Source: Candidatus Omnitrophota bacterium
GTDB lineage: Bacteria > Omnitrophota > Gorgyraeia > Gygaellales > JAQTUX01
Length of the DNA: 64,000 nucleotides
Direction of reading: 5' to 3'
Assembly (NCBI GenBank): GCA_028707125.1
Contig: JAQTUX010000002.1
Location: 433,872 to 497,871 of the forward strand
This document shows, piece by piece, positions 38,339-61,636 of the stretch; within the stretch, counting starts at the first letter, position 1, and each line of letters opens with the position of its first letter. Both the position numbers and the translations under genes were made by a program. The notes beneath the pieces were generated by a model, which saw only the letters and a program-made list of their open reading frames with translations, ran no database searches and was not told the origin of the DNA.

Positions 38339-38346
38339 AGCTTATC

Positions 38347-39243: not shown

Positions 39244-39244
39244 C

Positions 39245-40093
39245 TCACACCTCTACCTTGCTGAACTTCATAATTAAAAATATACCTATTATATAAAGCG
39301 CGGCGCCCCCGCCTAAAAGCATCTGCCCCATCTGGTCGTTAAGCATTACCTCAAAAAAGGCGTTGTTCATGGTATAGACAAAGAACCCGAAGGCGATCGG
39401 CAGAATACCCATGATCGTGCCTTGGAGCTTCCCCTGGATGCAGAGCGCGTTGACCTTGCCTATAAGCTTGTTCCTTTCCCTTATGGTAGTCACCAACTCA
39501 GAAAACGTGTCGGTAAGGTCTCCGCCGGATTCCCTGGCCACAAGTATCGCCGTATTGATCAGATCAAGCTCATCGATCGGCATCCTCTTCTTAAGATTGT
39601 TCAAGGACTGCTCAAGCGGCATACCCACGCGGTTCTCCCTCACCACCAGCCCGAACTCCTGAGATACGGGCGCGGGCATCTCTTCAACTAATGCCTCAAA
39701 TGCCTGAAGCAAGCTCAGGCCCGCCTTAAGGGAGCCCGAAAGGATCATCAAGGCGTCAACCAGCTGCTGGGAGAACATTTGCCTGCGTATCCTCTCCATC
39801 TGCTTTATAACCAAAGTAGGCACTATGAGCCCGATGAAACCCGCAGCAGCGGCAGCGAGTATATTACGGAAAACCAAATACGCCCCGAACGCCAGGACAA
39901 CGGGTATTAATACATCAAGGACCATGATCTTGTTAATGGGCAGGTTCAAAAACATCCTGTCAAGCTTAGGCGCGTATTGTTCCATGCGCCTCTGGCGCTG
40001 CCTTTCATACAGCTCTACTGCCAGCGGTATGCACTCATTAATAAGCAGCCCCACCGAACCAAAACTCAGGATAAATATGGCGAATTTGATCAT
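39245..40093 (-). CDS. tadB: Tad pilus inner-membrane platform protein TadB (T2SS-F-like)
   Basis: 282-aa track ORF with a GspF-like domain and TM segments at both ends. There is a 1-nt gap to tadC. Confidence 0.8.
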   Translation of the reverse strand: MIKFAIFILSFGSVGLLINECIPLAVELYERQRQRRMEQYAPKLDRMFLNLPINKIMVLDVLIPVVLAFGAYLVFRNILAAAAAGFIGLIVPTLVIKQMERIRRQMFSQQLVDALMILSGSLKAGLSLLQAFEALVEEMPAPVSQEFGLVVRENRVGMPLEQSLNNLKKRMPIDELDLINTAILVARESGGDLTDTFSELVTTIRERNKLIGKVNALCIQGKLQGTIMGILPIAFGFFVYTMNNAFFEVMLNDQMGQMLLGGGAALYIIGIFLIMKFSKVEV

Positions 40094-40452
40094 TCCTGCT
40101 CCTCTTGTCCGTCTTCCGGTTGTGTCGCGCTTACGTATTCTCCGTGCAACCTGTCGTAATCCTCAACCTCTGTAAATTTGTTGCTATGCATTAGTTCCGA
40201 AGATGCTTCATCCGGCCCGTCTACGTTTACAGCGTTGCCATATAACCCACTTAGAACTTCGCTGCTGATCGGTTCAGAGGCCCCAGGGTCGGTTGTCACT
40301 TCATACTGCCAGCCGAAACCGATCGCGTCTGCGGCAGTCCGCCACCTTCCCTGCATAGCGCGCTTAAGGTAGACCTGCATGGTCATGACCGCCGCGACCA
40401 TCACGATCACCAACACGCAATACTCAATCGCACTGATACCTTGGTTTTTCAT
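40090..40452 (-). CDS. Flp/TadE-type class III prepilin-like protein (MKNQG/ISAIEY…)
   Basis: Carries the G/XXXXEY prepilin-peptidase motif followed by a hydrophobic helix and 'MQVYLKRAMQGR', which is shared with the paralog array. Confidence 0.65.
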   Translation of the reverse strand: MKNQGISAIEYCVLVIVMVAAVMTMQVYLKRAMQGRWRTAADAIGFGWQYEVTTDPGASEPISSEVLSGLYGNAVNVDGPDEASSELMHSNKFTEVEDYDRLHGEYVSATQPEDGQEEQE

Positions 40453-43228
40453 AGTTCGCGTCCACCATTCTTGCCAGGTCGTTCGCCCGCCAGTAATGAT
40501 AGGCGTATGAGCGCGACCTTATGCCCTTGCCTAAAAGCCGCAGCGCCTCTATTTCGCTTAACCTGTTATCCGGGGTTATCCGCCCCAAGTCAACAGCGTC
40601 GCCGTATCTGGAATTCCAGAAACCTATGGCGTTCTTCGGCTCATCAAACCTCTGCACTTCAACCGATACCTTGCCTTCTTTATTCCTGAGATAGACGCAC
40701 CTCTTTAATCCGCCCCATTTCTTCTTCGCCTGCAGATACGGCACCTTGAACGGATACACGGTGACGTTTATAACGTGTATGCCCGCTTTGTCATCCCAGG
40801 CATACAGGGCGTTGGGAGTAAGATTCCATTTATCCTGCAACGCCTCTACCTCACCGTTGAACAACTCAATATCATCCCTGAACTGCTGGATCGCCTTTAT
40901 AAAAGCGGTCATACTTCCATCCTGCCCCTGCTGCAACCTTGAAGGCCTGTCGGATGCGGGGTCAACGTCTTTATCGTATATTTCTTCGTTGATCTCATCT
41001 ATTATTGCCTCTTTGATCACCTTGTCCGCGTCCCAGTTCCCATACCTGAAAATCCCATAGTAATTTTGATTTTGGATTGAATCAGGCAATGCATCCCTCA
41101 TCGCGTCCCTTATTCCTGTTAACTTCAACTCCCATGCCTCTAATGACTGCAGCCACCCTTTCTCAACAACCGGTGTCTCACCTTCAAGCAATTCGCCCTC
41201 TCCGGTGCACCAGTTATCAGGAACCCAGCTTATCTCGTCATACCAGTTGTCATAATTAATCTCTGCTGAGCTTTGGTTAGGGTGGCCGGCAAGCGGCTTA
41301 TATCTAGTTCCTATTTCGGGTTCAAGCCGTGCGATTTCACCTTCCGCCAGGCCTTCGGGAATATCAAGCAAATCATACAATTGGCTCTGCCACATTCCAA
41401 AAGTCGCCAGCAGGTCCTTATCGCTGATCGTCATCTGCCCCTGGACAGGCCGGTAATCCCTCTGGAGACGGCCATTAACATATTGATAACCCCAGAAATA
41501 CCTGTAGCCGTAGCCGGCCGGTATATATGCGCCGCCAAAGAATGACTGCATATAGTCCTCAAATGCCTCGGCACCCCATTTTAACAAATCAACCTGGTCA
41601 ACCTTATTGTATTCGCTGCCGCTGTCAGAGCGGTATTTTGCATCAAAATCTATCCAGGTCGCTGTCTCGTCCTCATCGATAAGCTGCGCTCGCAAAACAG
41701 ACAGGATTGCCGAAAGATCGCTGCCGAACACCGCCGACATCGCGCCCTGTTCCAGGTCTAAACCTATATTTAAACGCACTTCTGTCTGGCTTACCTGCTC
41801 AGCCCAACCGTTTTCTGTCAATTTTCTGGAAATGCTGTCCCACTCAAGCCCGGCCTGCTCAACTAGATCTCGTGTAACTATCCCCGCGTCGGGATAAAGT
41901 TCGCTGAAGGCGCGCTCTTCCGTCGCGTTACCGGGCACATAAAACGGAAGGGTTTCTCCCGTAAGAACCAGATTATTTGCCGGTAGAGTAATATTAAAGT
42001 CGTAGGAATGATAATAAGTATAGCTGCCTCTGGAGCTGCCCCACTGCCAGCTCCAGACAGGCGCGTTGATATCTCTTGCCAGCTCTTGCATATACCGCCA
42101 AATATCACTGCTGCTGACAGTAATTGTATCGGCGTGGTCCCTGAACAACACGCGCAATAATTCGTTAAGTTTTATATCCGTATCGTTAAATGTTTCTATC
42201 AAATCGCTTCTATAGATGCTGGAACTTATATTCTGATATGAATACTTGCCGCCGGACCTGTCATAACCATAGAATTCCAGGTGATCGCTTATGCGGAAAT
42301 TTCTTAACACAAATAATTTGGCAAGAAGACGTTTGATATTTGCTTCATCCGCCGCCTCTCCAGCAATATCAGGCCACTCCTCTTCATACAGGACCTGATA
42401 TTGCCCGTCTTCATCCCGCTCCAGTTCTATCCTGAAGGAATTCTGCATGAATTTCTGCTCAGCGTCCCAAAACGCCTTCATCTTAAGCTTAAATTGCGCG
42501 ATCTTGGCCTCTAAATCCTTATTATAGCCGTCCACGTTCTTCAGCCGCTCCACATACCATCTGGAAAACCGGCCGATCTTATCGCCTTTAATACCAAGGG
42601 GTTTCTCCCTGATATCGCGGCGGCGCTCTCTGCATACCGGCTCTTGGCCGGGATTAGGAGCGTCATAATAATAACAGCCCACCTCGCCGTCCTCATCCAG
42701 GTCAAACTCATCAGCCACCTTAACCGGGTCATCAACTATCTTGAACAGGGCGGTCTGTATCGCCCCTTCCCTGAATTTCATCTGCTCGGTCATCTTGGCA
42801 AACTGCCGGTTTACAGCCCGGACCATTGCCGGCTCGATCAGAATTGCCTGTGCCGCGACTCCTATGGTCGCTAAAACCGCTCCTACCTGGGCGCCGGTAA
42901 GCGCCGCGCCTGTTAAACCTAAAAAGCCGCCGAATCCAACAGCCATGAGAAAGGCCGCAGCCACTATTGAAAAGAAGAAGCCCCAGTTGAACTTGCACTT
43001 ATGGTCTCTGTCGCCTATAAATTTATGAGAAAGATAATGGGCAAAACTGCCCAGGTTATTGGCTAAATTAAATGACGCGGCGTCTGCCGCCTGCTCTACG
43101 GAAAGCTTCCTCTGTGAAAGGTGGCCTATATTGATCGCCACGGCAGCAAACAGTATCAGCGCCGCCAATAAAAGCGTTATCAGCGTGGCGATCTGGCCCA
43201 TCTTCTTTCTTTTGCCGCAGAGCATCAT
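40424..43228 (-). CDS. TadG-like large pilus-associated protein (N-terminal Tad/TadG membrane-anchor motif)
   Basis: 934 aa. The N-terminal TM segment is followed by 'HLSQRKLSVEQAADAASFNLANN', resembling the TadG N-terminal domain. The remainder is unassigned. Confidence 0.55.
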   Translation of the reverse strand: MMLCGKRKKMGQIATLITLLLAALILFAAVAINIGHLSQRKLSVEQAADAASFNLANNLGSFAHYLSHKFIGDRDHKCKFNWGFFFSIVAAAFLMAVGFGGFLGLTGAALTGAQVGAVLATIGVAAQAILIEPAMVRAVNRQFAKMTEQMKFREGAIQTALFKIVDDPVKVADEFDLDEDGEVGCYYYDAPNPGQEPVCRERRRDIREKPLGIKGDKIGRFSRWYVERLKNVDGYNKDLEAKIAQFKLKMKAFWDAEQKFMQNSFRIELERDEDGQYQVLYEEEWPDIAGEAADEANIKRLLAKLFVLRNFRISDHLEFYGYDRSGGKYSYQNISSSIYRSDLIETFNDTDIKLNELLRVLFRDHADTITVSSSDIWRYMQELARDINAPVWSWQWGSSRGSYTYYHSYDFNITLPANNLVLTGETLPFYVPGNATEERAFSELYPDAGIVTRDLVEQAGLEWDSISRKLTENGWAEQVSQTEVRLNIGLDLEQGAMSAVFGSDLSAILSVLRAQLIDEDETATWIDFDAKYRSDSGSEYNKVDQVDLLKWGAEAFEDYMQSFFGGAYIPAGYGYRYFWGYQYVNGRLQRDYRPVQGQMTISDKDLLATFGMWQSQLYDLLDIPEGLAEGEIARLEPEIGTRYKPLAGHPNQSSAEINYDNWYDEISWVPDNWCTGEGELLEGETPVVEKGWLQSLEAWELKLTGIRDAMRDALPDSIQNQNYYGIFRYGNWDADKVIKEAIIDEINEEIYDKDVDPASDRPSRLQQGQDGSMTAFIKAIQQFRDDIELFNGEVEALQDKWNLTPNALYAWDDKAGIHVINVTVYPFKVPYLQAKKKWGGLKRCVYLRNKEGKVSVEVQRFDEPKNAIGFWNSRYGDAVDLGRITPDNRLSEIEALRLLGKGIRSRSYAYHYWRANDLARMVDANYEKPRYQCD

Positions 43229-43256
43229 TTTATCTCACCTTCCATCTTTATGATCC

Positions 43257-43604
43257 TTAATCCCTGTGTAACGCGGGATTTTCCCGGTCAAAAACATAAA
43301 GCGGCTTTGCTGTATAAAATCCTGTTGACCAGGGGTATAATCTCTGGCGCCTTGTACCTCTCCCTAATTCTTCATCATCTCTTTTCTCGTTCTCTACTGT
43401 CGTCATGTTAAAAATCCTGCCCGACTGATAGTCGGTATGCCTGTATTTGAAATTATTGCTAAACCAGAGCAGGATATTGAACGTCCCCAAAAGCAGAACC
43501 ACAAAGGCGATAAAGGCAACCGTTGATTCTATGGTTACCTGCCCCGTACCTTTACCACGGACCTTCAACCTTATGCCCTGTTGCCCATCCCTTATCTTTA
43601 TCAT
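43257..43604 (-). CDS. TadE-like pseudopilin (…GKGTGQVTIESTVAFIAFVVLLLG…); start probably at internal Met ~43604
   Basis: Class III signal-peptide-like N-terminus. The track ORF 43257..43643 overlaps the upstream gene, so the likely true start is the internal Met. Confidence 0.45.
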   Translation of the reverse strand: MIKIRDGQQGIRLKVRGKGTGQVTIESTVAFIAFVVLLLGTFNILLWFSNNFKYRHTDYQSGRIFNMTTVENEKRDDEELGRGTRRQRLYPWSTGFYTAKPLYVFDRENPALHRD

Positions 43605-44859
43605 AACGTTTCTCCGTAAACACAAGTAATCCAAAACCCTCATTGCCCTCTATATTATCGTTGGCATTGTTTCTCGCCTCTCTCAACTTTAAGTCCAGAT
43701 TACTGGGGGTAACATTATTAGTTGCCCAAAGCACTTGAAAGAAAATCATCAAGTGGCTGAGGTACTCTGGATCGGCGATGACAGCCGCCTGATAATCGCT
43801 TACCAAAACAATAAATGCTTTAACGTTGGAAAAATCGCCTTCTCCGGTATTGGTTTCAGCTATATCTATGCTTGGATTCTCTGTAAATGTGTCCGGGGAT
43901 ATATTATGAAGCCCAAGGGGATAGATAAAATGTTCTTTCCCGTTTATCTTTACCAGGTTATTTACCAAGGCAAGCGTTTCATGTTTTAATATAAATGAAC
44001 CGCTGTTTATATTCCTTTGTATCCAATAAGAATTATATCTTTCCGGCTCATTTTTGGAATCTTGCCAGACCTCACCTTCCTGGCTGTCTATAACCCTTAT
44101 ATAATCAACCACCTCGCGGCTGCCCATGCCGCTTCCCTCTCTCCTGTTCTCTACGCTCAACACGCTTTCCTCTTCGCCGTCGCCGTCCAGGTCAAGGCTG
44201 TCGCCTTTAGAAATCTTGTCTACGGCAACATCTTCCCACTCCCAGCTTCTAAGGCGGTCGCCATTTTCAGCAACCCAACGCATCTGTCTGACATTTACGC
44301 GCGAATCCACGGCGTTGTCTTTATCCTCAAAGAACACCGGTTTACCGTCGGCGTTCTTTTTGGGGTCAATATCTTTTCTCTTCCTGGGCATAGCCGACAA
44401 AACAGTCCCTTCCGGCGACTCTAAATGTCCGTCCCTTACATATATCGTCCGGAACCCCGCGGTTGTAAAGGTGTATCTTTTATCGCCGAAATCATAAATT
44501 ACCCTGGGCAAGTCCTCTTGTTTGTCCCAGGTAATGTTGTAAAACAACTTCTGCGTCCAGACGGCAGAATTGAACTGCACAAAAGGCGTACGCTCCGCGT
44601 ATCCGCTCAAACCCAGGGGGTTGCCCGGGTCAGGAACCGGCAGCTGCGTGAATCTGGCGTAGGTTATGGTCCTCGCGTCATTCCGGGCATCGTATGCCTC
44701 TTTATACGACTGCCTGAATACCTGCATAGACAGGCCATGGTTATAGTTAAGCGTCGTCCCGTATTTAACAAAAAACCCTATCACCAGAAACAGCGCCGTG
44801 CCGAATAACGCCAGCTCTGTCAAGGCCTGCCCGGATTTTTTAATTACCGAAATACTCAT
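43552..44859 (-). CDS. Long (435 aa) TadE/TadF-like pseudopilin (…KSGQALTELALFGTALFLVIG…)
   Basis: N-terminal G-Q-x-x-x-E-(L/F) followed by a hydrophobic helix. It is unusually long for TadE/F. Confidence 0.55.
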   Translation of the reverse strand: MSISVIKKSGQALTELALFGTALFLVIGFFVKYGTTLNYNHGLSMQVFRQSYKEAYDARNDARTITYARFTQLPVPDPGNPLGLSGYAERTPFVQFNSAVWTQKLFYNITWDKQEDLPRVIYDFGDKRYTFTTAGFRTIYVRDGHLESPEGTVLSAMPRKRKDIDPKKNADGKPVFFEDKDNAVDSRVNVRQMRWVAENGDRLRSWEWEDVAVDKISKGDSLDLDGDGEEESVLSVENRREGSGMGSREVVDYIRVIDSQEGEVWQDSKNEPERYNSYWIQRNINSGSFILKHETLALVNNLVKINGKEHFIYPLGLHNISPDTFTENPSIDIAETNTGEGDFSNVKAFIVLVSDYQAAVIADPEYLSHLMIFFQVLWATNNVTPSNLDLKLREARNNANDNIEGNEGFGLLVFTEKRYDKDKGWATGHKVEGPW

Positions 44860-45178
44860 ATTTGGATTGCCTCACCTTCTCATCTCCTTTGCGCAATGTT
44901 ACGCTGCTAACCTGCTCTGTAGTGCTTCTATTGCGACCATCCGCCTGGTTCCGCGGATTAATAATACTTGATACAGACACCGAGCCGGTTTCCAGATACG
45001 TATACATACCGGAGTAAGTGTTCCCCGGAGAATACTGCTGGCCTATGTCGTCCGCGGCAAGCCGCATCCTGCCCTGGATCGCGCGCTTAACATAGGTCTG
45101 CATGGCGATCAAGGCGCCGACAATAACGATCACCAGCACGCATATCTCTAACGAGGACTGGCCTGATCTACGCATCAT
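44840..45178 (-). CDS. Flp/TadE-type prepilin-like paralog (…MMRRSGQSSLEICVLVIVIVGALIAMQTYVKRAIQGR…)
   Basis: Track ORF 44840..45217. The likely start is the internal Met. G/QSSLE + hydrophobic helix + conserved 'AMQTYVKRAIQGR'. C-terminal 'KYEYFGN'. Confidence 0.6.
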   Translation of the reverse strand: MMRRSGQSSLEICVLVIVIVGALIAMQTYVKRAIQGRMRLAADDIGQQYSPGNTYSGMYTYLETGSVSVSSIINPRNQADGRNRSTTEQVSSVTLRKGDEKVRQSKYEYFGN

Positions 45179-45188
45179 CTTTCCTTCC

Positions 45189-45650
45189 TTATTCAACCGG
45201 CTGAGTTGCCTCAGCATAAGATTTTGTCCACGTTACTTCTCCGCCTATCGGCTCTGCGCCATCCGGAAGATCGGAATGATCCGAAGGGCCAATCTCCAGC
45301 ACGGTAGCGAATTCCTCATTTACAGCCGGACTGTCAACGCCGTATTGCTCATCTTTTTCGTTGCCGGCCATGAATTCGGTATCTTTAGTGTTGCTTAAAC
45401 TATACGACTCTGCGGCCGATCTTGATATCTCACCCAGCATCAGGTCACGCTCAGGGACGTACTGGTCACGCTCAATATCAAACTCGGGGCCTAATTTTAA
45501 AATACTATTAGCCGAGTTAGCTATGCCGCCCTGGATCGCGCGCTTGACATAGGTCTGCATAGCCACAAGCGCTGCCCCCACAAGAGCGAATACGATAGCG
45601 TATTCGCTCAAGCTCTGGGCTTTAGTCCTCCTGATAGAACCTCCGGCCAT
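45189..45650 (-). CDS. Flp/TadE-type prepilin-like paralog (A/QSLSEYAIV variant)
   Basis: 153 aa with the same N-terminal architecture and an acidic C-terminal extension. Confidence 0.55.
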   Translation of the reverse strand: MAGGSIRRTKAQSLSEYAIVFALVGAALVAMQTYVKRAIQGGIANSANSILKLGPEFDIERDQYVPERDLMLGEISRSAAESYSLSNTKDTEFMAGNEKDEQYGVDSPAVNEEFATVLEIGPSDHSDLPDGAEPIGGEVTWTKSYAEATQPVE

Positions 45651-45692
45651 AGCTGAACACTCCCTGTGAAGTTAAAACTGCCATAAAACACT

Positions 45693-46169
45693 TTAATTGC
45701 TAACGGCCTGTATCCATCGATTATGACTATCAATGGTCACATTACTCGTTGGGCTCGAGGCCTCAGGTATCGTGTCTTCGTCTGAAACAAAACCACCGTA
45801 ATCCGTTGTTGCCGGCTCCGGCTCTTCGTCGCTATCCGGATCCTGTCCCCAGAACTCATGTTTTTGCTTGGCAACGATCTCCCATCCTTTACGGTTCTGC
45901 TGCTGCGTATCGATCTGTGAACCTGACCGTTCAAATTCTCCACCACTCAATTGCACCCAGTCCCTGCTAACTGTGTAAGAATCGGTCTGATGAGCGCTCT
46001 TGGTATAGCCCGGTGAATACTGCTCGCCCATATCATCGGAAGCGCTTCTCAGACGGCCCTGGTAGCCGCGCTTGATGAACGTCTGCATGGCTATGAGGGC
46101 GCCGATGATGACTACTATAAGTATGGCGAATTCCAACGTGGATTGGCCTTTGTTCTCTTTAATAAACAT
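45693..46169 (-). CDS. Flp/TadE-type prepilin-like paralog (MFIKENKG/QSTLEFAIL…)
   Basis: Track ORF 45693..46283. The likely start is the internal Met at ~46169 with an AAGGAGGTGA RBS. The N-terminal half is identical to the next paralog. Confidence 0.6.
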   Translation of the reverse strand: MFIKENKGQSTLEFAILIVVIIGALIAMQTFIKRGYQGRLRSASDDMGEQYSPGYTKSAHQTDSYTVSRDWVQLSGGEFERSGSQIDTQQQNRKGWEIVAKQKHEFWGQDPDSDEEPEPATTDYGGFVSDEDTIPEASSPTSNVTIDSHNRWIQAVSN

Positions 46170-46193
46170 TTCTTCTATCACCTCCTTACTATT
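46008..46193. repeat. 186-bp perfect direct repeat, copy 1 (pilin paralog 5' end + RBS)
   Basis: Identical to 46526-46710 by eye ('cccggtgaatactgctcgcccatatcatcggaagcgcttctcag…cctccttactatt'). Confidence 0.8.
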
Positions 46194-46686
46194 GAGGAAT
46201 TGGCGACGTCTCTGCAGTAGCCAAATTCGTATTGAATTCTGTTGAATATCTACCACTATGCACGGCTGCCTGATCTGCGGCACTCACGCCTTCTAACGCG
46301 TCGGGTGTCTCTCCGCCAGTAATCGTGTGTTTCCGACCTTCGTTTATCTCTTCCGGAACTTCACCCCAGAATTCAAAATTTGACTTTGCCACTGACTCCT
46401 TATTGATCCTGTCTTGATGCTGGTTCTTTATCTCGGAAATAGAAATTATTTTGTTATTAGCGTCGGCCTTTACCCTCTCCTCGTTATGCGCAAAACTTAT
46501 ATTATACTCATCGGATTGCGTGTATCCCGGTGAATACTGCTCGCCCATATCATCGGAAGCGCTTCTCAGACGGCCCTGGTAGCCGCGCTTGATGAACGTC
46601 TGCATGGCTATGAGGGCGCCGATGATGACTACTATAAGTATGGCGAATTCCAACGTGGATTGGCCTTTGTTCTCTTTAATAAACAT
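46189..46686 (-). CDS. Flp/TadE-type prepilin-like paralog (MFIKENKG/QSTLEFAIL…)
   Basis: Track ORF 46189..46716. Internal Met start with the same RBS. Its 5' 186 bp is a perfect copy of the downstream paralog. Confidence 0.6.
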   Translation of the reverse strand: MFIKENKGQSTLEFAILIVVIIGALIAMQTFIKRGYQGRLRSASDDMGEQYSPGYTQSDEYNISFAHNEERVKADANNKIISISEIKNQHQDRINKESVAKSNFEFWGEVPEEINEGRKHTITGGETPDALEGVSAADQAAVHSGRYSTEFNTNLATAETSPIPQ

Positions 46687-46710
46687 TTCTTCTATCACCT
46701 CCTTACTATT
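46526..46710. repeat. 186-bp perfect direct repeat, copy 2
   Basis: See copy 1. Confidence 0.8.
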
Positions 46711-47083
46711 GGTCAACCGGAGCGTGGAATTTCTGCGCCCCCTTTCTCGCTATCTCCTCTCTGTTAATATTTCTCTCAACCTCGCCGCCTTCCTTTACTT
46801 TAGTATCTACCTCGTCGGCTCTACCGGTAGCAAACCTTGATTCAAGATAATACGGCTCATATTGCCCTGTCTGAAAACTCAATTCTGTGGTATTGCCAAC
46901 ATCGGTAAGCGTTATTCCCGTCTCTGTTCCGGCTATTGTCGGCTGAAGCTGCGTAGATTGCTCTATCCTGCCCTGCAGGCCTCTTTTTACGTATGTCTGC
47001 ATGGCGATCGCGGCAGCTACTACCAGCCCGATAAGAACCGCGTATTCCGCGGTATTCTGCCCCTCTCTATTCCGTAGTAACAT
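46706..47083 (-). CDS. Flp/TadE-type prepilin-like paralog (MLLRNREG/QNTAEYAVL…)
   Basis: 125 aa. RBS GGGGGTG 7 nt upstream. Confidence 0.65.
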   Translation of the reverse strand: MLLRNREGQNTAEYAVLIGLVVAAAIAMQTYVKRGLQGRIEQSTQLQPTIAGTETGITLTDVGNTTELSFQTGQYEPYYLESRFATGRADEVDTKVKEGGEVERNINREEIARKGAQKFHAPVDQ

Positions 47084-47120
47084 TTATTTTCACCCCCTTT
47101 AAGCGAATGAATGACTCTGA

Positions 47121-47582
47121 CTATGTGCCGTTAATGGTCCGATTAGCTGTTGCCCCGGGTTTTTCCTGCGTCTGGTATCCTATTCTCTTTGTCTTAGTGT
47201 CGGATTCAGCGCGTAAAACAGCGCCTCCCAGACCTACATGTTCATGTTCAGGCGTTCTGCTGGCGCTTACGAAATCCGAACGAAGATATTCTGGTTCATA
47301 CTGATGCCCGCTTGCGAACAGGTTCTCAGCACCGATAAAAGGCACCGTAGCATTTATGGTCGTATTTGTCGTTGTCGTATTGTTTACGGGATTGGTCGTC
47401 CGCAATACACCCGCAAGACTAAAAGTGCTTACTGTATGCGGCCTTGCGTCTACCGCGTCTTTCACCTTCCCTTGTATGCTTCTCTTAACCAATGTCTGCA
47501 TGCCAATCGCGGCAGCTACTACCAGCCCTATCAGGACGGCGTATTCCGCGGTATTCTGCCCCTTTCTATTCCGTAGTAACAT
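47121..47582 (-). CDS. Flp/TadE-type prepilin-like paralog (MLLRNRKG/QNTAEYAVL…), Thr/Asn-rich C-terminus
   Basis: 153 aa. The N-terminus and 5' leader are near-identical to 46706..47083. Confidence 0.65.
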   Translation of the reverse strand: MLLRNRKGQNTAEYAVLIGLVVAAAIGMQTLVKRSIQGKVKDAVDARPHTVSTFSLAGVLRTTNPVNNTTTTNTTINATVPFIGAENLFASGHQYEPEYLRSDFVSASRTPEHEHVGLGGAVLRAESDTKTKRIGYQTQEKPGATANRTINGT

Positions 47583-47619
47583 TTATTTTCACCCCCTTTA
47601 AGCGAATGAATGACTCTGA

Positions 47620-47847
47620 CTATGTAGTGCCGTTTACTGTTGGCCTTTCTCCTTCTAAAGGCGTATATGTTGCCCTGTAGCTCTCGGTCTTGTCTTGCAT
47701 TTCTCCCGCAACATGCGCTACACCCAACTCAAGATGCTTCTTCATAAGAGCGCTGATGACCACTACCGCAGCCACAATGGCTGTGAATACTATCACGTAT
47801 TCCATTATTGACTGGCCCTTCTTCGCGTTGAACTTCATTTCTTTCAC
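47620..47847 (-). CDS. Short Flp-type prepilin (MKEMKFNAKKG/QSIMEYVIVF…)
   Basis: 75 aa, classic Flp size and motif. Confidence 0.65.
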   Translation of the reverse strand: MKEMKFNAKKGQSIMEYVIVFTAIVAAVVVISALMKKHLELGVAHVAGEMQDKTESYRATYTPLEGERPTVNGTT

Positions 47848-47896
47848 CTCCTTCTTTTAACAAAAAATCCCGGCAAAATTACCGGGATAAATCCTG

Positions 47897-48061
47897 TCAG
47901 GTATTCAGCGGCTCGGCGTTGATCTGATTCTCCAATGCCTTCAGATTCGCCTGCACAGCCCGCTGCACATAAACGCGCATAGCCACAAACGCGCTGACCA
48001 CAATAATTATTAAGACAGCATACTCAAGTGAGGCCTGACCCCTATGCCATCTATTTACCAT
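47897..48061 (-). CDS. Short Flp-type prepilin (MVNRWHRG/QASLEYAVL…); start at internal Met
   Basis: Track ORF 47897..48175 overlaps the upstream gene. The internal Met gives a 54-aa prepilin. Confidence 0.5.
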   Translation of the reverse strand: MVNRWHRGQASLEYAVLIIIVVSAFVAMRVYVQRAVQANLKALENQINAEPLNT

Positions 48062-48063
48062 CG

Positions 48064-48282
48064 CTACCTCCGGATTGACTCTGCTATGCCGCTGAAAAAA
48101 CCTCTCAATCCAAACGCGCTTTCGCTTTTCAAGTAAGCCGCGAACATCACAAAGGTCACCACCGCGAAGGCACAAAAGATCAAAAAATATTCTACTGTTG
48201 CTTGGCCTTTTTTAATTCTTAAGCACTTTGTAAAAGTTTTGTTTAAGTGCCTAATAAAAAAACCGAAAGTTTCTTTCATCAT
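48064..48282 (-). CDS. Flp-type prepilin-like ORF (…RIKKG/QATVEYFLIF…) with uncertain start
   Basis: Has the G/XXXXEY motif, but its first 10 codons coincide with a hairpin + T-run terminator-like structure. Confidence 0.45.
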   Translation of the reverse strand: MMKETFGFFIRHLNKTFTKCLRIKKGQATVEYFLIFCAFAVVTFVMFAAYLKSESAFGLRGFFSGIAESIRR

Positions 48283-48300
48283 TTCCTTTCGGCTTTCGGT
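48250..48300 (-). terminator. Hairpin (CCGAAAG…CTTTCGG / GAAAG-AAA-CTTTC) followed by T7 run on minus strand
   Basis: The minus strand reads '…ccgaaagccgaaaggaaatgatgaaagaaactttcggtttttttatt'. It lies ~170 nt downstream of the 532-aa gene stop and inside the first codons of pilin ORF 48064..48282. Confidence 0.4.
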
Positions 48301-48466
48301 AGCCCGGCCTACCTTGATAACAATGTTGTCAAGGTACCGTGGCTTTGCGCATCCCGGCTTACGCCGGGAATTGCCCTTTTCGCTGCCGTTCTACTTGCAC
48401 TTAAAATATACCATATATACTACTATATGTCAAGCGCAAAACTGCCTGAAATTGAAAGCGGTTACA

Positions 48467-50065
48467 TTATTGTGAGAACCAGAAACGGCGGCCGGTTTTA
48501 TCAACGCTATTTAGTTCGTTGGCGCGCTTAGAAAGATAGGCAATATCGTTGGTATGGCCTTGCGGCTGGAATTTGATGAGGTTGTATTTATCCTGTTGGA
48601 TCGATCTGCCGCGTAGTTTGAAAACCCGCTCCGTTATATCGTTTAAGGCAATCTTATCATAACCTATTGGCAATAAATGTGTTGCGCAATACTTTATCAG
48701 GCCCCAGCGCCAGGCCTTAAGCACGCTCTCAAAGGATAGCGCCTCAGGTATGTATCCCCTCTCCCCCTGCTTGCGCGTTTCCTCCGTCGAGAAAACATTC
48801 TTCAGGCCGAATGAGAAAAACTCGATCCTCTTGTTGAAATCATCCAGAGCATCCTTGAAATCAGGCCATTTGTTTAAATACGCCCGGGCAACGTCCTCTT
48901 TGCTTAACGACTCTTTATCCATATCTGTCAGCAACACAAGATAATACCTGTCCCGCGAGGCCTTCTTAATGAAAATGGCCCTTAACGTAACTAATTGATT
49001 TAGCTTATGTTGCGTGAATTGAGCCGTCCCTTCCGACAATACGATCTCCTCAAGATCGGGTCCTGGCCGGAAAAAAGACCCTTCTTTTTTATCCTCTAAG
49101 GCGATTTCGGAGGCGTATTGCCCTTCAGGCAGCCCTATTATAAAGTCGGTTTTAAGGCGCGGTATCTCGCAGGCGCTGCTTATCTCCTCTCTGCCAGAGG
49201 TGAAGAACGATATGTTTTTAACGTAGAGATGCGAGGGGAACTTACAGCAGCCGATGAAATCAAGCAGGCCTTGCGGCATCTTGCTCGCTAAGGGGGCGAT
49301 AAAGATAACAAACGGCTCTGTCTTGTTTATGAAGGTATTTTTTATATAAATCTCTGTATTGTAATATGTTGCGTAAAAATCTGACGGGATATTACCATAA
49401 GGCCAGATCGTCCTCGCGCTTGCGTCAATATATATTGAAGAGTCGTCTGATAACACAAATTTCAAATACTGCACCTCTCGGATACGCGGCATAAGCTCTT
49501 TGTATAACCTGAAATTGATTGCTGTATTATATTGCAATTGTTCAAGATAAGATACCAACCCCCCATAATCTATGCCGGCTCCTGTAAGGCGCTCAAACGT
49601 CTCTTTTATATAACTATTTGATTCGTAATCGTTTACGTCACCAAATAGGGAGATGTACAATAAAGTTTCCACGAGCGCCCTGATGTTTCCAGGGGCATTT
49701 TCGGCAGTGGTTTCTTGCAATAAATTCGTTATATAATCAACCCCTCCCAAAGTGTTTTCAATTGCCTTGAGCAAATATAGGCCCATATTCAATTCGCCTT
49801 CTTGAGGGAGTTTTGGGGGCTCCGGTTTTATCTCTGGCCTTATCTCAGGAAGGGGCGGCACAGGCGCCCCCTTCCTGCGCCTGCCAACAGGGCTGCTTAG
49901 ATTTAATTGTTTGATTATATTATTTACTGTGGACTTTGATATTGTCTTATTGAATCTCTGAGAAAGCGTAGCGGATATTTTCCTCGCGCTCAGGCCGGGG
50001 TTTTGCTTCTTAAGATCAGAAATGCTCTGTTTGAGCTCTTCAGTTACTTTGTAGATAACGCCCAT
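48467..50065 (-). CDS. Hypothetical 532-aa protein with N-terminal HTH-like segment
   Basis: Track ORF. The N-terminal '…LSARKISATLSQRFNKTISKSTVNNIIKQ…' resembles a helix-turn-helix, followed by a Pro/Lys-rich linker and a large unassigned domain. Confidence 0.55.
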   Translation of the reverse strand: MGVIYKVTEELKQSISDLKKQNPGLSARKISATLSQRFNKTISKSTVNNIIKQLNLSSPVGRRRKGAPVPPLPEIRPEIKPEPPKLPQEGELNMGLYLLKAIENTLGGVDYITNLLQETTAENAPGNIRALVETLLYISLFGDVNDYESNSYIKETFERLTGAGIDYGGLVSYLEQLQYNTAINFRLYKELMPRIREVQYLKFVLSDDSSIYIDASARTIWPYGNIPSDFYATYYNTEIYIKNTFINKTEPFVIFIAPLASKMPQGLLDFIGCCKFPSHLYVKNISFFTSGREEISSACEIPRLKTDFIIGLPEGQYASEIALEDKKEGSFFRPGPDLEEIVLSEGTAQFTQHKLNQLVTLRAIFIKKASRDRYYLVLLTDMDKESLSKEDVARAYLNKWPDFKDALDDFNKRIEFFSFGLKNVFSTEETRKQGERGYIPEALSFESVLKAWRWGLIKYCATHLLPIGYDKIALNDITERVFKLRGRSIQQDKYNLIKFQPQGHTNDIAYLSKRANELNSVDKTGRRFWFSQ

Positions 50066-50077
50066 TTAGTCAGCTCA

Positions 50078-50180
50078 AAAATGTCCAATCTAATCTTTAA
50101 GTCAGATTGGACATTTATGCCTCCACATCAAGTATAATACAAGAGTTAACTAAAGTCAAGTTAATTCAGATTGGACAATT
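50078..50180 (-). promoter_or_regulatory. Sigma70-like promoter (-35 TTGACT / 17 nt / -10 TATACT on minus strand) with palindromic operator ATGTCCAATCT-N12-AGATTGGACAT and a third half-site
   Basis: Plus-strand IR arms sit at 50081-50091 and 50104-50114, and the third half-site 'cagattggacaa' at 50167-50178. The -35 is the revcomp of 50154-50159 and the -10 the revcomp of 50131-50136. The element sits between the DUF192 stop and the start of the HTH-protein gene. Confidence 0.5.
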
Positions 50181-50190
50181 ATAGGAGAGT

Positions 50191-50532
50191 TTACTGAAAG
50201 GTAATGACATCCCCTGTTTCAGTGCGGGTCTGGCGAGCAGTTCCGGAAGGAAGTTCTATGCAGTAATAAGCCCCAAGATAAATGCCAGAAAGGCGCCAGG
50301 GCTGGAGATCATGCAAAACCTTGATAACCCTGCCCTGCCTTGTGGTAAAGACAGCGTCAATGCTGAATTTCATAAAAAAGGTGTGAATGGAGGTGCAGGC
50401 GGCTATGACCAGGCCCTCTCCCTGATGAAGGGACGTCTTTCCCAAAAGCCCCTTCATGCGCGAAACCAGGGTATCGGCTAAGGCGGCGTTTTCTGCCAGA
50501 ACCGTGCCCTTACCCTGGTTGATTATTTTCAT
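50191..50532 (-). CDS. DUF192-family protein (commonly encoded in tad loci)
   Basis: 113-aa track ORF whose sequence pattern (…GLLGK…GEGLVI…CTSIHTFFMKFSIDAVF…) is typical of DUF192/COG1430. Confidence 0.7.
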   Translation of the reverse strand: MKIINQGKGTVLAENAALADTLVSRMKGLLGKTSLHQGEGLVIAACTSIHTFFMKFSIDAVFTTRQGRVIKVLHDLQPWRLSGIYLGAYYCIELPSGTARQTRTETGDVITFQ

Positions 50533-52691
50533 TACTGCTTGAAGAGGTTATCAGGGACTTCAACACCGTGGGACTTTATTTCCTCTATAAATGAAGGGAT
50601 ATATCCTGTGGGGATGTAGGTGCCGGTGATCCTTCCGTCCTTATCAAGCCCTGTCTGCTTGAATGTAAAAATGTCCGCCATATCAATATGCACGTCGTCC
50701 TTCATGCCGGTGATCTCGGTGATCTGCATGATCTTCCGGGAGCCGTCAGAAAGCCGCGCCGTATGCACGATTATATCAACTGCCGAGGCGATCATTTCGC
50801 GTATGGCGCGGATAGGCAGTTCTGCCCCGGACATCAGTATCATTGAATCAAGCCGGGAAAGGACATCGTGAGTGGAATTGGCGTGTATGGTGGTAAGCGA
50901 ACCGTCGTGGCCTGTGTTCATTGCCTGAAGCATATCCAGGGATTCCGGGCCGCGGCATTCGCCTATTATTACCCTATCAGGCCTCATTCTCAGGGTATTC
51001 CTGAAAAGCTCCCGTATGCTGATGCCGCCCTTGCCTTCTATATTGGGCGGCCTTGACTCAAGCCGCCCCCAATGCTCCTGGCGAAGCTTCAACTCTGCCG
51101 CGTCTTCAATGGTTATGATCCTCTCATTCTCCGGTATAAACTCGGAGAGCACATTCAAAACCGTGGTCTTGCCTGAGCCGGTTCCGCCGGACACTATCAG
51201 ATTCTTACGCACGATCACGCATATCTTTAAGAAATCCTTCATCTGTTCGCTTAAGGTGCCGAACCTCAGCAGATCATTGATATTGAACCTCTCTACGCCG
51301 AATTTCCTTATGGTAAGCATTGGCCCGGTAAGGGAAAGCGGCGGGATGATCGCGTTCACGCGGGAGCCGTCAGGAAGGCGCGCGTCCACCATGGGAGTGG
51401 ACTCGTCAATATGCCTGCCGAGAGGGGCGATTATCCTCTCAATGATCTGCCGGACCTGATCGTCCGAAAGAAACCTCTTGCTGGTCAATTCTATCCTGCC
51501 GCGCCTTTCTATATAGATCTGGTCCTTATTATTGACCATTATGTCGGTTATGTCTGGATCGCTGATAAGGTCTTCCAGCGGCCCTAACCCCAGCGCTTCA
51601 TCCGTGATCTCTTTTATAAGCCGCTTTCTAACCTCAAAACTGGAGAGGAATGCTCCGGTCTCGGCAGCCAGGGCGTTTGACACGGCCTTCTCGGTCTTCT
51701 CCTTTATCTGGCTCACCTTATTCGGATCGATCGTATTCAGATCAAGCCGTTTCAGATCCAATTCTTCTATGATACGCTGGTGCACCCTTTTCTTAAGGAT
51801 GATGACTTCGTCCCTCTCGGACTCTACTCTTTCCGCCAGGCGCAGCGGCTCAGCCAACCCCAGGCGCCGCCAGAAATCTCCTTCCTTGGCCAAAACAGAT
51901 TCTCTTGCCCTCTCCAGCGCCACCTCCTGGTGTTCAATGTACAGGTCCGCCTTCTCAACAAGGACCTTGCCCAGGCCCTTGATCACATTGCTTACCTTTG
52001 AGCGCGGGGCGTCAATTACGATGGGGACCCTTCTGTTCACGGAATAACCCACTGCCTTGCCTTCCGAGGGGATCTTGGCCAGTATCTCACAGGGAAGCGC
52101 TGCCCTTACCTCCTGCCAGGTAACACCCCCCACGCTCTCTGAACGGTTGAGGAGAAGCTTTACCATTTTCAGGGGGAAGTGCAGCGATTGCAGAACATCC
52201 AATGACCACTTGGTCTGATACACGGAAAGTATGTCGGGGGTAACCACCAGGAGGACAAGGTTTGACTGATTAAAGGCATAAAACAGCATCTCAGAAAAAC
52301 CCTTACCCACATCCATAATAACGTAGTCATATTCCTTATTGAGCATCGCGAAGACGTCGCTTATGTATTTTTCCTCAAGGTGCACGCTCTGGCGGGGGCG
52401 GGAGACCGCGGCAAGGAAATCAATTTTCAGATCGGGGAGTTTCAGCATAAACTCCCTTATAGACGCCACCGGCGGCTGTTTCTTAAGGCCGACTATCGCG
52501 TCAAGAAAGTTATACGACGGGCTTATGTTAAGCATGCGCGCCATATCTCCCGGCGCCTGAGTATCCAGGTCAAGCAGGGCGACCTTCTTGCCCTGGTCTT
52601 TTGCTATGCTTACGGCAAGATTGGCGGCGATAAGGGTTTTCCCTACCCCACCCTTAGTGGAGAAAATCGCGATTGTCTTAGCGGAAGGCAT
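50532..52691 (-). CDS. tadA: Fused TadZ/CpaE-like ParA-type ATPase domain + TadA/CpaF secretion ATPase (719 aa)
   Basis: The N-terminus 'IAIFSTKGGVGKTLIAANLAV' is a deviant Walker A of the MinD/ParA/CpaE type. The C-terminus 'IVSGGTGSGKTTVLN…' is a CpaF/VirB11-type Walker A, followed by the His-box region. Confidence 0.8.
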   Translation of the reverse strand: MPSAKTIAIFSTKGGVGKTLIAANLAVSIAKDQGKKVALLDLDTQAPGDMARMLNISPSYNFLDAIVGLKKQPPVASIREFMLKLPDLKIDFLAAVSRPRQSVHLEEKYISDVFAMLNKEYDYVIMDVGKGFSEMLFYAFNQSNLVLLVVTPDILSVYQTKWSLDVLQSLHFPLKMVKLLLNRSESVGGVTWQEVRAALPCEILAKIPSEGKAVGYSVNRRVPIVIDAPRSKVSNVIKGLGKVLVEKADLYIEHQEVALERARESVLAKEGDFWRRLGLAEPLRLAERVESERDEVIILKKRVHQRIIEELDLKRLDLNTIDPNKVSQIKEKTEKAVSNALAAETGAFLSSFEVRKRLIKEITDEALGLGPLEDLISDPDITDIMVNNKDQIYIERRGRIELTSKRFLSDDQVRQIIERIIAPLGRHIDESTPMVDARLPDGSRVNAIIPPLSLTGPMLTIRKFGVERFNINDLLRFGTLSEQMKDFLKICVIVRKNLIVSGGTGSGKTTVLNVLSEFIPENERIITIEDAAELKLRQEHWGRLESRPPNIEGKGGISIRELFRNTLRMRPDRVIIGECRGPESLDMLQAMNTGHDGSLTTIHANSTHDVLSRLDSMILMSGAELPIRAIREMIASAVDIIVHTARLSDGSRKIMQITEITGMKDDVHIDMADIFTFKQTGLDKDGRITGTYIPTGYIPSFIEEIKSHGVEVPDNLFKQ

Positions 52692-52700
52692 AGTTATTCT

Positions 52701-54311
52701 TCAGCGTCTTTTATAAACAATGGGGACGTCAACCCAGAGTTCTCCATCCTGGATCTGGGGCGGAAACGGAGGATAGGGGGACTGCGCTTTGGCAACGGAG
52801 ATCGAGGCGTCATCAATGATCTTGTAGCCGGATGACTCGGTTAATTTTATATCCCCGAGCCGGCCGTTACGCAGGATGCGAAGGCTTAATTTCACTACCC
52901 CTTCCCATCCCGCGTCGCGGGCAACCTTAGGATAATACACTGACCTGGATATCTTGGTCTGCACTGCCTTGACGTATTTGTACACATTTTCGTTGCCCAG
53001 AAAATATGAAGGAGAGACGATATCCGCCTCAAATGAGGCATCGCTCCTCTGCCGGGACATCCCCCCCTTGCGCAGGGAAAGATTGCCGATGTCCTCTTCC
53101 TTTATAACGTGAGGGGTAAGAGTGATCACCAGCTCCGTCTGGTTATTGGTAAAACTTTTTGACCTGAACAGAGCGCCTAAAACCGGCACATCTCCCAGGG
53201 CAGGCCACTTAGTCAAGGTATCGCTGTCTTTATTCTTAATTAAACCCGCCAGAAATACGGTCTGTCCGTCCTTAAGATATAGTTCGCTCTCCGCCTTGCG
53301 CGTGTCAAAGCCGGGTATGTTGATACCGCCTGCCGTTACTGAATTAGCGGTATTTATCTCGCTTACCTCCATTGTCAGCTGGGTAATGATCGCCTCGCTT
53401 TTTGTGTAAGTAGGCTTGATCTTCAAAGAGATACCTATATCCCTGTATTCCACATTAGTGGTAAAATTCTCTCCCAGCGTGCTGGTAGTGACAATGGGCA
53501 CCTCTCCGCCGACAAGGAACTCCGCCTCTTTACCGCTTAAACATACGAGTTTTGGCCGGGAAAGCACCCTGCCCTTGCCGCGCTTGATATACATGTTCAA
53601 TGCCGCGGTCACGTCTGTGCGGGTAAGGTAGCCGATCCTGAATGCCTCCGCCACCCTGTGGCTGAGCGGCTCTGTGGCTATGCCTTCAAAGGGGTTTTCC
53701 GTTACGGTTGTAAGCGGCTGGAGCGTCCAGCCGACGCCCAGATTATCGGCGTCGTCTATAGTCAACTCCAGGATCTGGACGTCTATCTCAATAGAGGTCT
53801 TTGACTCCTCGGTAATAACCGTGTTTACTACATATTGTTTCAAATCGCCCAATACGTAGTCAAGCTTCTCTTTTTCCGCTTCATTCACTACCTGTCCGCT
53901 CAGAAATACCTTCCTCTCATCCTCGTTTATCTTTGTCTGAACTTCGGAAAAACCCGTATCCGCGAGGACCCGCTTGATCCGCGCGTTAACCTGGTCCAGA
54001 TCCACGCTGAATACCTTCAGGCGGAAGGAGTGCTCGCCGAATTTATCCCAGTAAACAAAGGTGGTGGTGCCGTCCGCCTTAGCGTTCACTACTATATCTG
54101 TTTCAGTAACCTCGGCGACATCCGCCACAGCGGGATTACCGATCACCACCCGTGTCGGCTCTTGCGCTTCAAAATGCCTGACCTCATTCACCATCAGCAT
54201 TATCTCTTCAACGCCTTCTATCTCCCCTATATCAAACAATGCCGACGCGGGAGCGGGATGCGACAGTGCCAGTAAACCAACCAGGATAGGAACTAACAGC
54301 GCTTTTCTCAT
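52701..54311 (-). CDS. cpaC: CpaC/RcpA-type secretin with C-terminal TonB_C-like domain
   Basis: Signal peptide. Secretin core '…LVCLSGKEAEFLVGGEVPIVTTS…ISLKIKP…VFLAGLI…'. C-terminal 'YPKVARDAGWEGVVKLSLRILRNGRLGDIKLTESSGYKIIDDASISVAKAQ…PFP' resembles the TonB C-terminal domain. Confidence 0.8.
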   Translation of the reverse strand: MRKALLVPILVGLLALSHPAPASALFDIGEIEGVEEIMLMVNEVRHFEAQEPTRVVIGNPAVADVAEVTETDIVVNAKADGTTTFVYWDKFGEHSFRLKVFSVDLDQVNARIKRVLADTGFSEVQTKINEDERKVFLSGQVVNEAEKEKLDYVLGDLKQYVVNTVITEESKTSIEIDVQILELTIDDADNLGVGWTLQPLTTVTENPFEGIATEPLSHRVAEAFRIGYLTRTDVTAALNMYIKRGKGRVLSRPKLVCLSGKEAEFLVGGEVPIVTTSTLGENFTTNVEYRDIGISLKIKPTYTKSEAIITQLTMEVSEINTANSVTAGGINIPGFDTRKAESELYLKDGQTVFLAGLIKNKDSDTLTKWPALGDVPVLGALFRSKSFTNNQTELVITLTPHVIKEEDIGNLSLRKGGMSRQRSDASFEADIVSPSYFLGNENVYKYVKAVQTKISRSVYYPKVARDAGWEGVVKLSLRILRNGRLGDIKLTESSGYKIIDDASISVAKAQSPYPPFPPQIQDGELWVDVPIVYKRR

Positions 54312-61561: not shown

Positions 61562-61636
61562 TAGCCCCAACCGGATTTGAACCGGTGTTTAAAGGCTGAG
61601 AACCTTCCGTCCTGGACCAGGCTAGACGATGGGGCC
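61562..61636 (-). tRNA. tRNA-Glu (anticodon CUC)
   Basis: Minus-strand sequence GGCCCCATCGTCTAGCCTGGTCCAGGACGGAAGGTTCTCAGCCTTTAAACACCGGTTCAAATCCGGTTGGGGCTA folds as a cloverleaf. The D-arm is almost identical to E. coli tRNA-Glu. The anticodon loop is TTCTCAG and the T-loop GGTTCAAATCC. No CCA is encoded. Confidence 0.8.

Follow-up and report, generated by a model that had tools for sequence, protein, structure and literature searches.

The locus described here raises the question of how two neighboring genes can be identical, letter for letter, at their 5' ends and yet have little in common over the rest of their length. It is found in a 64,000-nucleotide (nt) stretch of DNA, here called the window, from a metagenome-assembled genome (MAG) of the phylum Omnitrophota (GenBank assembly GCA_028707125.1, contig JAQTUX010000002.1); all positions are counted from the first letter of that stretch. 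The two genes, g3 and g4, belong to an array of small pilin-like genes within a Tad-like pilus locus and sit on one contig of 510,045 bp. Judged from sequence comparisons, the repeats shared by g3 and g4, and by their neighbors g5 and g6, are most probably footprints of recent intrachromosomal (ectopic) gene conversion between anciently duplicated neighboring pilin-like paralogs.

Extent and content of the repeats

Base-by-base comparison reveals an exact direct repeat of 186 nt, in which 46009-46194 is identical to 46526-46711 at an offset of 517 nt; if the flanks are included, the similarity reaches 192 nt at 99% identity (46003-46194 versus 46520-46711). A second repeat pairs 46971-47126 with 47470-47625 at 90% identity over 156 nt and includes an exact core of 61 nt (47066-47126 and 47565-47625). 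Repeat finding, the base-by-base check, and blastn self-comparison are in agreement on these repeats. The first-pass annotation of this DNA correctly gave the length and content of the 186-nt identity, although its coordinates (46008-46193 and 46526-46710) were off by one and inconsistent with each other. It also had the second repeat right at about 90% identity but placed its start some 20 to 30 nt too late. The wording "tandem duplication" is inappropriate, as the 186-nt copies are not arranged head to tail. In a simple head-to-tail duplication, the copies would abut and the whole unit would be similar, whereas here they start 517 nt apart and the 331 nt between them are dissimilar, with 15 to 62% identity per 40-nt block.

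The 186-nt copies represent the corresponding 5' modules of two tandem minus-strand genes. In the sense of transcription, the upstream copy (46526-46711, minus strand) begins with the end of g5 (its last codon, CAA, and its stop codon, TAG), followed by a 19-nt spacer that carries the Shine-Dalgarno sequence AAGGAGGTGA and then by the ATG codon and codons 1 to 53 of g4 plus 2 nt. The downstream copy (46009-46194, minus strand) repeats this layout one gene further on, with the end of g4 (last codon and stop codon), an identical spacer with its Shine-Dalgarno sequence, and codons 1 to 53 of g3 plus 2 nt. The second repeat, on the same strand, starts with the last codon and the stop codon of g7 in one copy (47470-47625) and of g6 in the other (46971-47126), followed in each by a 37-nt spacer with a Shine-Dalgarno sequence and the first ~37 codons of g6 and g5, respectively. 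As had been noticed earlier, the leader of this pair is common to both copies; it falls, together with the first six codons, inside the exact 61-nt core. The initial description of the repeats as ribosome-binding sites plus 5' coding regions of neighboring pilin paralogs with unlike 3' halves is thus borne out.

The B-type pilin-like genes g4 (46189-46686, minus strand; PHR44_08130, MDD4910624.1) and g3 (45693-46169, minus strand; PHR44_08125, MDD4910623.1) encode proteins of 165 and 158 amino acids that share their first 56 residues and show 31% identity over the remainder. The g4 product starts with MFIKENKG↓QSTLEF (the sequence after the leader MFIKENKG is QSTLEFAILIVVIIGALIAM) and has, besides a DDMGEQYSPG motif, a C-terminal half that is acidic and variable. 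The A-type genes g6 (47121-47582, minus strand) and g5 (46706-47083, minus strand) encode pilin-like proteins of 153 and 125 amino acids. The former starts with MLLRNRKG↓QNTAEY and carries a QYEPEY motif, while the C-terminal half of the latter is most similar to the product of the single-copy A gene in locus L001 (see below). Pfam and NCBIfam scans of g3 to g6 return no significant family match. In a low-confidence AlphaFold2 model of g4 (built from a 9-sequence alignment, with an overall predicted local distance difference test [pLDDT] score of 55.7), residues 11 to 44 form a helix, with pLDDT values of 83 to 87 in its first part, followed by a β-hairpin at residues 56 to 99 and a disordered tail. 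This layout indicates that the conversion tract would correspond to the leader, the α1 helix, and the conserved linker.

Two features of the shared tracts bear on their origin. In a Sawyer-type permutation test, the differing columns of the paralog alignments were shuffled in 20,000 trials, none of which reached the observed run; the longest identical runs were at most 31 nt for g4/g3 and at most 24 nt for g6/g5, compared with the observed 186 and 61 nt, over which synonymous sites are identical as well. In addition, codons 54 to 56 (Gly-Tyr-Thr), located just past the 186-nt tract, encode the same residues in g3 and g4 but differ in all three third positions. With the proteins still identical at this point, these three synonymous differences mark the tract edge as a boundary of recombination and not of selection.

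Comparison with related loci

The comparison covered about 97 loci, to which species-representative genomes contributed 80 further Omnitrophota loci and a metagenome scan added 12. Neither of these scans, the latter run with a B-type alignment, found a relative of g4 closer than ~48%, and a protein search for a second strain found none. The locus L001 (from the Joint Genome Institute) is fully syntenic with the window and carries a single A-type and a single B-type gene where the window has pairs. Two contigs of ERZ781361 (European Nucleotide Archive), L003 and L004, encode the B-type proteins P0003 and P0004 and two A-type proteins.

Compared with P0003, P0004, and P0005, the first 56 codons of g3 and g4 show 22 to 26 synonymous and 6 to 10 nonsynonymous codon differences, whereas between g3 and g4 themselves none of the first 53 codons differs, synonymously or otherwise. 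Within the tract, the paralogs of one genome are therefore closer to each other (100% nt identity) than to their orthologs in other genomes (74 to 79%). The C-terminal cores show a different pattern, with scores of 105 for g4-P0003 and 100 for g3-P0004, compared with 74 for g4-g3, which places the duplication before the split from the ERZ781361 organism. As the 3' halves are nearer to foreign counterparts than to each other, the duplication is old, and only the identity of the 5' ends is recent; the "recent duplication" offered by the first-pass annotation as an alternative to gene conversion does not hold for the genes as a whole. In the A-type pair, identity over the first 64 coding nt is 0.92 within the window and 0.98 within ERZ781361, compared with 0.75 to 0.78 between the genomes.

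The orthology outside the tract, moderate in the window, is strong in L006, L011, and L009, which come from three related species and have the gene order A1-B1-A2-B2. The 3' parts of their B1 and B2 genes, along with the upstream DNA, group by ortholog (0.77 to 0.88 versus 0.44 to 0.49), whereas the 5'-terminal 165 nt group by genome (0.93 to 0.96 within and 0.84 to 0.93 between genomes). Accordingly, the leader variants MFIRLTK and MFIRSKK, which differ in LT versus SK, sort by genome and not by gene.

In L023, L042, L049, and L050, high identity at the 5' end is likewise combined with low identity at the 3' end. The ~97 loci contain 19 exact direct repeats with a length of 40 nt or more, 11 of which are located at pilin 5' ends. 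A paralog pair with at least 90% identity or a long exact run is found in about 8 of ~80 genomes, with values of 0.5 to 0.7 in the others. The copy number and order of A- and B-type genes also vary, from AABB in the window and AB in L001 to ABAB in L006, L011, and L009 and XYZXYZ in L023. Conversion between pilin genes is a recurrent process, and the window and L023 (197 nt) provide its two strongest instances.

The repeats in these other loci have their own arrangements. In L023, the exact repeat (4240-4436 versus 5397-5593) belongs to a duplicated XYZ-XYZ unit; L006 (5265 versus 6010) and L011 (5212 versus 5999) contain AB-AB units with exact repeats at gene 5' ends. The lengths of the exact repeats at gene 5' ends in L023, L006, and L011 are 197, 124, and 92 nt.

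Probable gene conversion between pilin paralogs

Gene conversion, which had been proposed already in the first pass, offers the best explanation for the exact tract, the codon differences, the score pattern, the grouping in the three related species, and the result of the permutation test. The N-terminal module, which consists of the leader with the K-G↓Q-x-x-x-E motif, the predicted hydrophobic α1 helix, and the KRGxQGR...DDxGxQYSPG linker, is likely to be under strong purifying selection that would keep the 5' ends of the paralogs similar enough to seed homologous recombination. A tract of 186 nt would have been copied from one gene junction to the other, starting at the final codon of the upstream gene and running through the Shine-Dalgarno spacer to codon 53, wiping out the synonymous differences on its way. 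It would have ended where homology collapses, that is, at the divergent 3' halves. An older or patchier event might likewise have occurred at g6/g5. The resulting subunits would be translated from identical initiation regions and share their processing sites and assembly helices, but differ in the C-terminal parts that are exposed. The identity of the tracts, their sharp edges, the grouping by genome or by ortholog, and the recurrence in other genomes are observed directly, whereas a RecA-type mechanism and a selective benefit of any kind are inferred; the pattern may be a neutral by-product.

Several points weigh against this explanation or soften it. Bubble-popping by the assembler may have made the identity look slightly more exact than it is, and a single MAG assembly is the source of the order in which the two copies stand. 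For the pair in the window, orthology is supported to a moderate degree: P0003 and P0004 also resemble each other, with a score of 120, and they come from two short contigs of low coverage whose origin from one genome is a presumption. Purifying selection on the N-terminal module explains part of the high-5'/low-3' pattern in other loci. Finally, the donor and the recipient are indistinguishable.

Alternative explanations

A single pilin gene might instead have been duplicated in tandem not long ago, with the 3' part of one copy then diverging very fast or being replaced, for instance through diversifying selection or through import of a foreign 3' module by recombination anchored in the conserved 5' modules, but this appears quite unlikely. 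Such a duplication would be in line with the single A and B genes in L001 versus the pairs in the window, which indicate that copy number changes between lineages, and with the geometry of g4, whose variable module has one of the two identical 186-nt modules at either end, as expected from a module insertion. However, the absence of substitutions in 186 nt, next to ~31% protein identity and saturated nt divergence, would require an implausible difference in rates. Furthermore, each 3' half has a nearer counterpart in another organism, and the 3' types of L006, L011, and L009 are stably orthologous in three species while their 5' ends homogenize. As for foreign import, it would not be expected to leave two letter-perfect flanks.

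An assembly artifact, with two strain alleles stitched in tandem or differing copies collapsed into an identical consensus, is very unlikely. Such an error is conceivable in a MAG, all the more so as the 186-nt exact repeat is longer than the usual k-mer sizes and the ERZ781361 contigs L003 and L004 end at or near such repeats, L003 inside one. Nevertheless, the downstream copy includes the stop codon of g4 and the upstream copy that of g5, so that the repeat has two entries and two exits, leaving g5-repeat-g4-repeat-g3 as the sole linear path. Both gene types also occur separately in another organism, and comparable exact tracts of 83 to 197 nt are present in independent assemblies from other assemblers.

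Independent support for the repeat comes from a Logan assembly of SRR22315508. Its contig SRR22315508_785550 (L097; 11,438 bp) is identical to window positions 34601-46038 and breaks off exactly 30 nt into the repeat copy at 46009-46194. Logan contigs were presumably built with k = 31, in which case 30 nt equals k - 1, the point where such a graph would branch. The contig thus stops at the repeat edge, where the read graph must branch if there are two continuations, which indicates that the repeat is present in the reads. Its other end, at position 34601, lies inside a giant gene, possibly at a further repeat or at a position that varies between strains. When the products of g3, g4, and g5 were looked up in the contig index, no exact match was found; in the Logan data, these genes are presumably located on fragments broken at the repeats.

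Programmed pilin variation is a highly improbable explanation. In the pilE/pilS system of Neisseria, silent, 5'-truncated, promoterless donor copies convert the variable 3' part of the expressed gene, a process that needs a G-quadruplex (G4)-forming sequence. By analogy, the identical 5' modules might serve as handles to shuffle, delete, or amplify 3' cassettes, with phase-variable copy number. The two systems do share nonreciprocal recombination among the pilin copies of one genome. Moreover, 186-nt direct repeats around a 331-nt module are good substrates for RecA-dependent unequal crossing-over, the copy number and order of A- and B-type genes differ among genomes, and the organisms are thought, in passages of Seymour et al. 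(PMC10066038), to be predatory or parasitic. However, none of the three hallmarks of the Neisseria system is found here. All array copies are complete genes with a ribosome-binding site, an ATG, and a leader, and blastn self-comparison detects no 5'-truncated silent pilin copies within the 64 kb. There is no G4 motif of the form (G3+N1-7)x4 on either strand in 43000-50500. The 3' halves have no shared tracts, so that the exchange homogenizes the constant part and leaves the variable part untouched. Nor is a recombinase evident; the adjoining "transposase-like" protein matches only helix-turn-helix (HTH) domains and is a conserved, syntenic component of 67 loci. The proposal of the first-pass annotation that these repeats generate chimeric pilins or act as variation cassettes is therefore not supported: because conversion affects the conserved N-terminal module, it removes variation and creates none.

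That selection at the nucleotide level acts on an RNA element common to both copies, for instance a regulatory hairpin or the target of a small RNA, and keeps them identical without recombination can hardly be credited, even though the tract includes a noncoding spacer and the translation initiation region, since the 186-nt RNA folds no better than its shuffled versions (z = -0.71), no Rfam family matches the repeats, and the 22 to 26 synonymous codon differences between orthologs in the same stretch indicate that there is no nucleotide-level constraint. A diversity-generating retroelement was considered and rejected, as the first pair has no mismatches and those in the second pair are of mixed types; Pfam scans, which covered the larger open reading frames (ORFs) and part of the giant one, detected no reverse transcriptase domain.

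The pilin array and its genomic context

The array consists of nine small minus-strand genes, g9 to g1 in the order of transcription, that extend from 48282 down to 44840. All nine products have the N terminus of the Tad/Flp class, with a short basic leader that ends in G or A, Q at position +1, E at position +5, and a hydrophobic helix of ~20 residues. Their processing motif, K/R-G↓Q-S/N-x-x-E, is unlike the usual bacterial Flp motif G↓A/T-x-x-x-E-Y, and a family-specific MQxYxKRGxQGR motif follows the helix. Besides the two pairs, the array includes the paralogs g2 (45189-45650; 153 amino acids) and g1 (44840-45178; 112 amino acids), as well as three short Flp-like genes, g9 (48064-48282), g8 (47897-48061; 54 amino acids), and g7 (47620-47838), all on the minus strand, whose products have N termini resembling class III signal peptides. 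Only g8 and g9 approach the Pfam model Class_IIIsignal, with 22.8 and 16.9 bits against a cutoff of 23.7, and none of the array genes tested has a significant match to a curated family (Flp_Fap, TadE, or Class_IIIsignal in Pfam, or any in NCBIfam). The g8 gene is strongly conserved in related loci, with 93 loci retrieved by tblastn, and its product would be the likeliest major subunit. A tenth pilin-like gene (40090-40452, minus strand; 120 amino acids, MKNQG↓ISAIEY...) lies between the genes for a 934-amino-acid TadG-like protein and a TadB-like protein; its 5' part is 77% identical to that of g1 over 94 nt (40326-40419 versus 45049-45142).

Upstream of the array, the minus strand encodes RcpC/CpaB (54308-55201), a secretin with a C-terminal TonB_C domain (52701-54311), and an ATPase in which a ParA/MinD (TadZ-like) N-terminal domain is fused to T2SSE (TadA-like; 50532-52691). 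Both the ATPase fusion and the secretin-TonB_C fusion have the same architectures in L001. The other upstream genes encode a peptidyl-prolyl isomerase (PPIase), a DUF192 protein, and a 532-amino-acid HTH protein. Downstream, also on the minus strand, are genes for larger proteins with pilin-like N termini (43552-44859, 43257-43643, and 40424-43228) and two T2SSF platform proteins (TadB/TadC-like; 39245-40093 and 38347-39243). The array is thus linked to Tad machinery, with the ParA-like T2SSE, two T2SSF proteins, Secretin, and RcpC encoded in one strand block; no prepilin peptidase (Peptidase_A24) gene was detected in those ORFs of the window that were scanned. As candidate type IV pilin-like proteins of the Tad/Flp class, the array products would be expected to be cleaved by a dedicated prepilin peptidase and assembled into a filament.

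The 532-amino-acid protein (48467-50065, minus strand) has only an N-terminal HTH of the transposase type, with matches to HTH_Tnp_Tc3_2 and HTH_32 that are both under the cutoff. It is syntenic in L001 at 58% identity, and its homologs are found beside the pilin array in 67 of ~97 loci, which rules out an IS (insertion sequence) element or transposase insertion next to the array; this protein may be a dedicated regulator. Directly after the TadC-like gene comes the giant gene, which is of the Omnitrophota type, an open frame of at least 12,780 amino acids (2-38341, minus strand) that runs out of the window at its start. The sole Pfam match in its first 8,000 residues is a Peptidase_C39-like domain (residues 177 to 255), and an exact 50-nt internal repeat is present at 21721 and 22882. 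A tRNA gene (61562-61636, minus strand; Rfam RF00005, 54.8 bits) is found in the window, and L001 has one at 60-134, upstream of the PPIase gene.

Regulatory elements

The first-pass annotation took the shared leaders to be duplicated regulatory regions and possible independent promoters. In fact, they are the 19-nt and 37-nt spacers with Shine-Dalgarno sequences, and a consensus scan finds no promoter-like match in either. That scan used a sigma-70-like consensus, and Omnitrophota promoters are uncharacterized. The sole strong promoter-like site, TTGACA-17-TATATT with a TG (11 of 12 positions; minus strand, 48433 to 48405), matches by consensus only and, together with a riboswitch, precedes the entire array. 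The riboswitch is a cyclic di-GMP (c-di-GMP)-I aptamer (48295-48385, minus strand; RF01051, 53.5 bits versus a gathering threshold of 35) that sits between the promoter-like site and g9, 12 nt upstream of the g9 start, and thus heads the array. Between g8 and g7, there is a strong terminator-like hairpin (47867-47888, minus strand) with a 9-bp stem followed by a T-run, which suggests high expression of g9 and g8 and attenuated read-through into the longer pilin-like genes. The array accordingly looks like a single riboswitch-controlled operon with an internal attenuator.

Riboswitches at homologous positions before the arrays are found in L001 (8473-8557), L006 (3747-3884), L011 (3696-3834), and L034 (5218-5324). 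In L002, a c-di-GMP-I-GGC variant (9261-9356; 67.5 bits) is located just upstream of the giant gene. Short exact direct repeats of 42 to 90 nt, spaced by 45 to 232 nt, are present in L034 (3244/3399), L045 (3853/4015), L058 (3940-4030), L064 (3943/4111), and L091 (3669/3901), from a few hundred to ~2,800 bases upstream of the pilin match and apparently in or near the gene for the HTH protein. They were tested as candidate tandem riboswitches and are not riboswitches.

Relation to known systems

The pattern resembles the concerted evolution by gene conversion described in prokaryotes (PMC6053082), in that paralogs within a genome are closer to each other over a bounded tract with sharp edges, identical synonymous sites, and orthologous flanks. 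It differs from the general case in that the tract is limited to the 5' module (the spacer and ~53 codons), while the rest of the gene escapes. A literature search found no report of 5'-module conversion in Omnitrophota pilin arrays. As described in passages of West-Roberts et al. (10.1101/2023.11.21.568195), a conserved type II secretion/Tad-like locus lies upstream of Omnitrophota giant genes; in passages of Seymour et al., such a locus is treated as encoding Tad complexes. The passages of both papers that describe the locus do not mention internal repeats, conversion of the small genes, or a c-di-GMP-I riboswitch before the array.

A functional analogy may be drawn with PilA1 to PilA6 of Haloferax volcanii, which share a nearly identical N-terminal hydrophobic H-domain that is required for assembly and differ in the exposed part and in adhesion. 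The Haloferax genes are dispersed, and their similarity has been described for the proteins, whereas the genes analyzed here are in tandem and match at the nt level, including the noncoding spacer. With Flp/Tad (type IVc) pilins and archaeal EppA-dependent (Epd) pilins, the array products share a short basic leader, G at position -1, E at position +5, a hydrophobic helix of ~20 residues, and linkage to homologs of TadA/B/C, RcpA, and RcpC. The processing motifs of Methanococcus maripaludis EpdB to EpdE (KGQV, KGQL, and KGQI [PMC4371748]) contain the same K-G-Q as the array. Unlike classical Flp, the array proteins are longer (112 to 165 amino acids) and carry the MQxYxKRGxQGR motif.

Implications

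The conversion described here is an ordinary finding, a new instance of a known process in an already described type of locus, and it does not overturn current views. Its practical consequence is that exact repeats of 60 to 200 nt break short-read assemblies of Omnitrophota Tad loci, as seen in L003 and L097, which end inside such repeats; the pilin copy number in these organisms may therefore be miscounted. With respect to function, the N-terminal assembly module is kept uniform while the exposed halves diverge, which fits a single machine supplied with several subunits or tips as alternatives, in organisms that are thought to attach to prey.

The geometry of the repeats would also allow RecA-mediated deletion or amplification of g4, making a role of copy number at the population level possible. 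A more far-reaching version of this idea, that the 5' modules are built-in handles through which RecA-dependent unequal crossing-over and conversion expand, delete, and reorder adhesin-like pilin tips within populations, tuning the attachment of predatory Omnitrophota to their prey or host under the control of the c-di-GMP riboswitch and leaving the varying copy number and order of A- and B-type genes as a trace, is improbable. The riboswitch that heads the array, and the giant gene in one related locus, is probably a more useful lead, as it might provide a testable link between c-di-GMP signaling, pilus production, and the expression of the giant protein.

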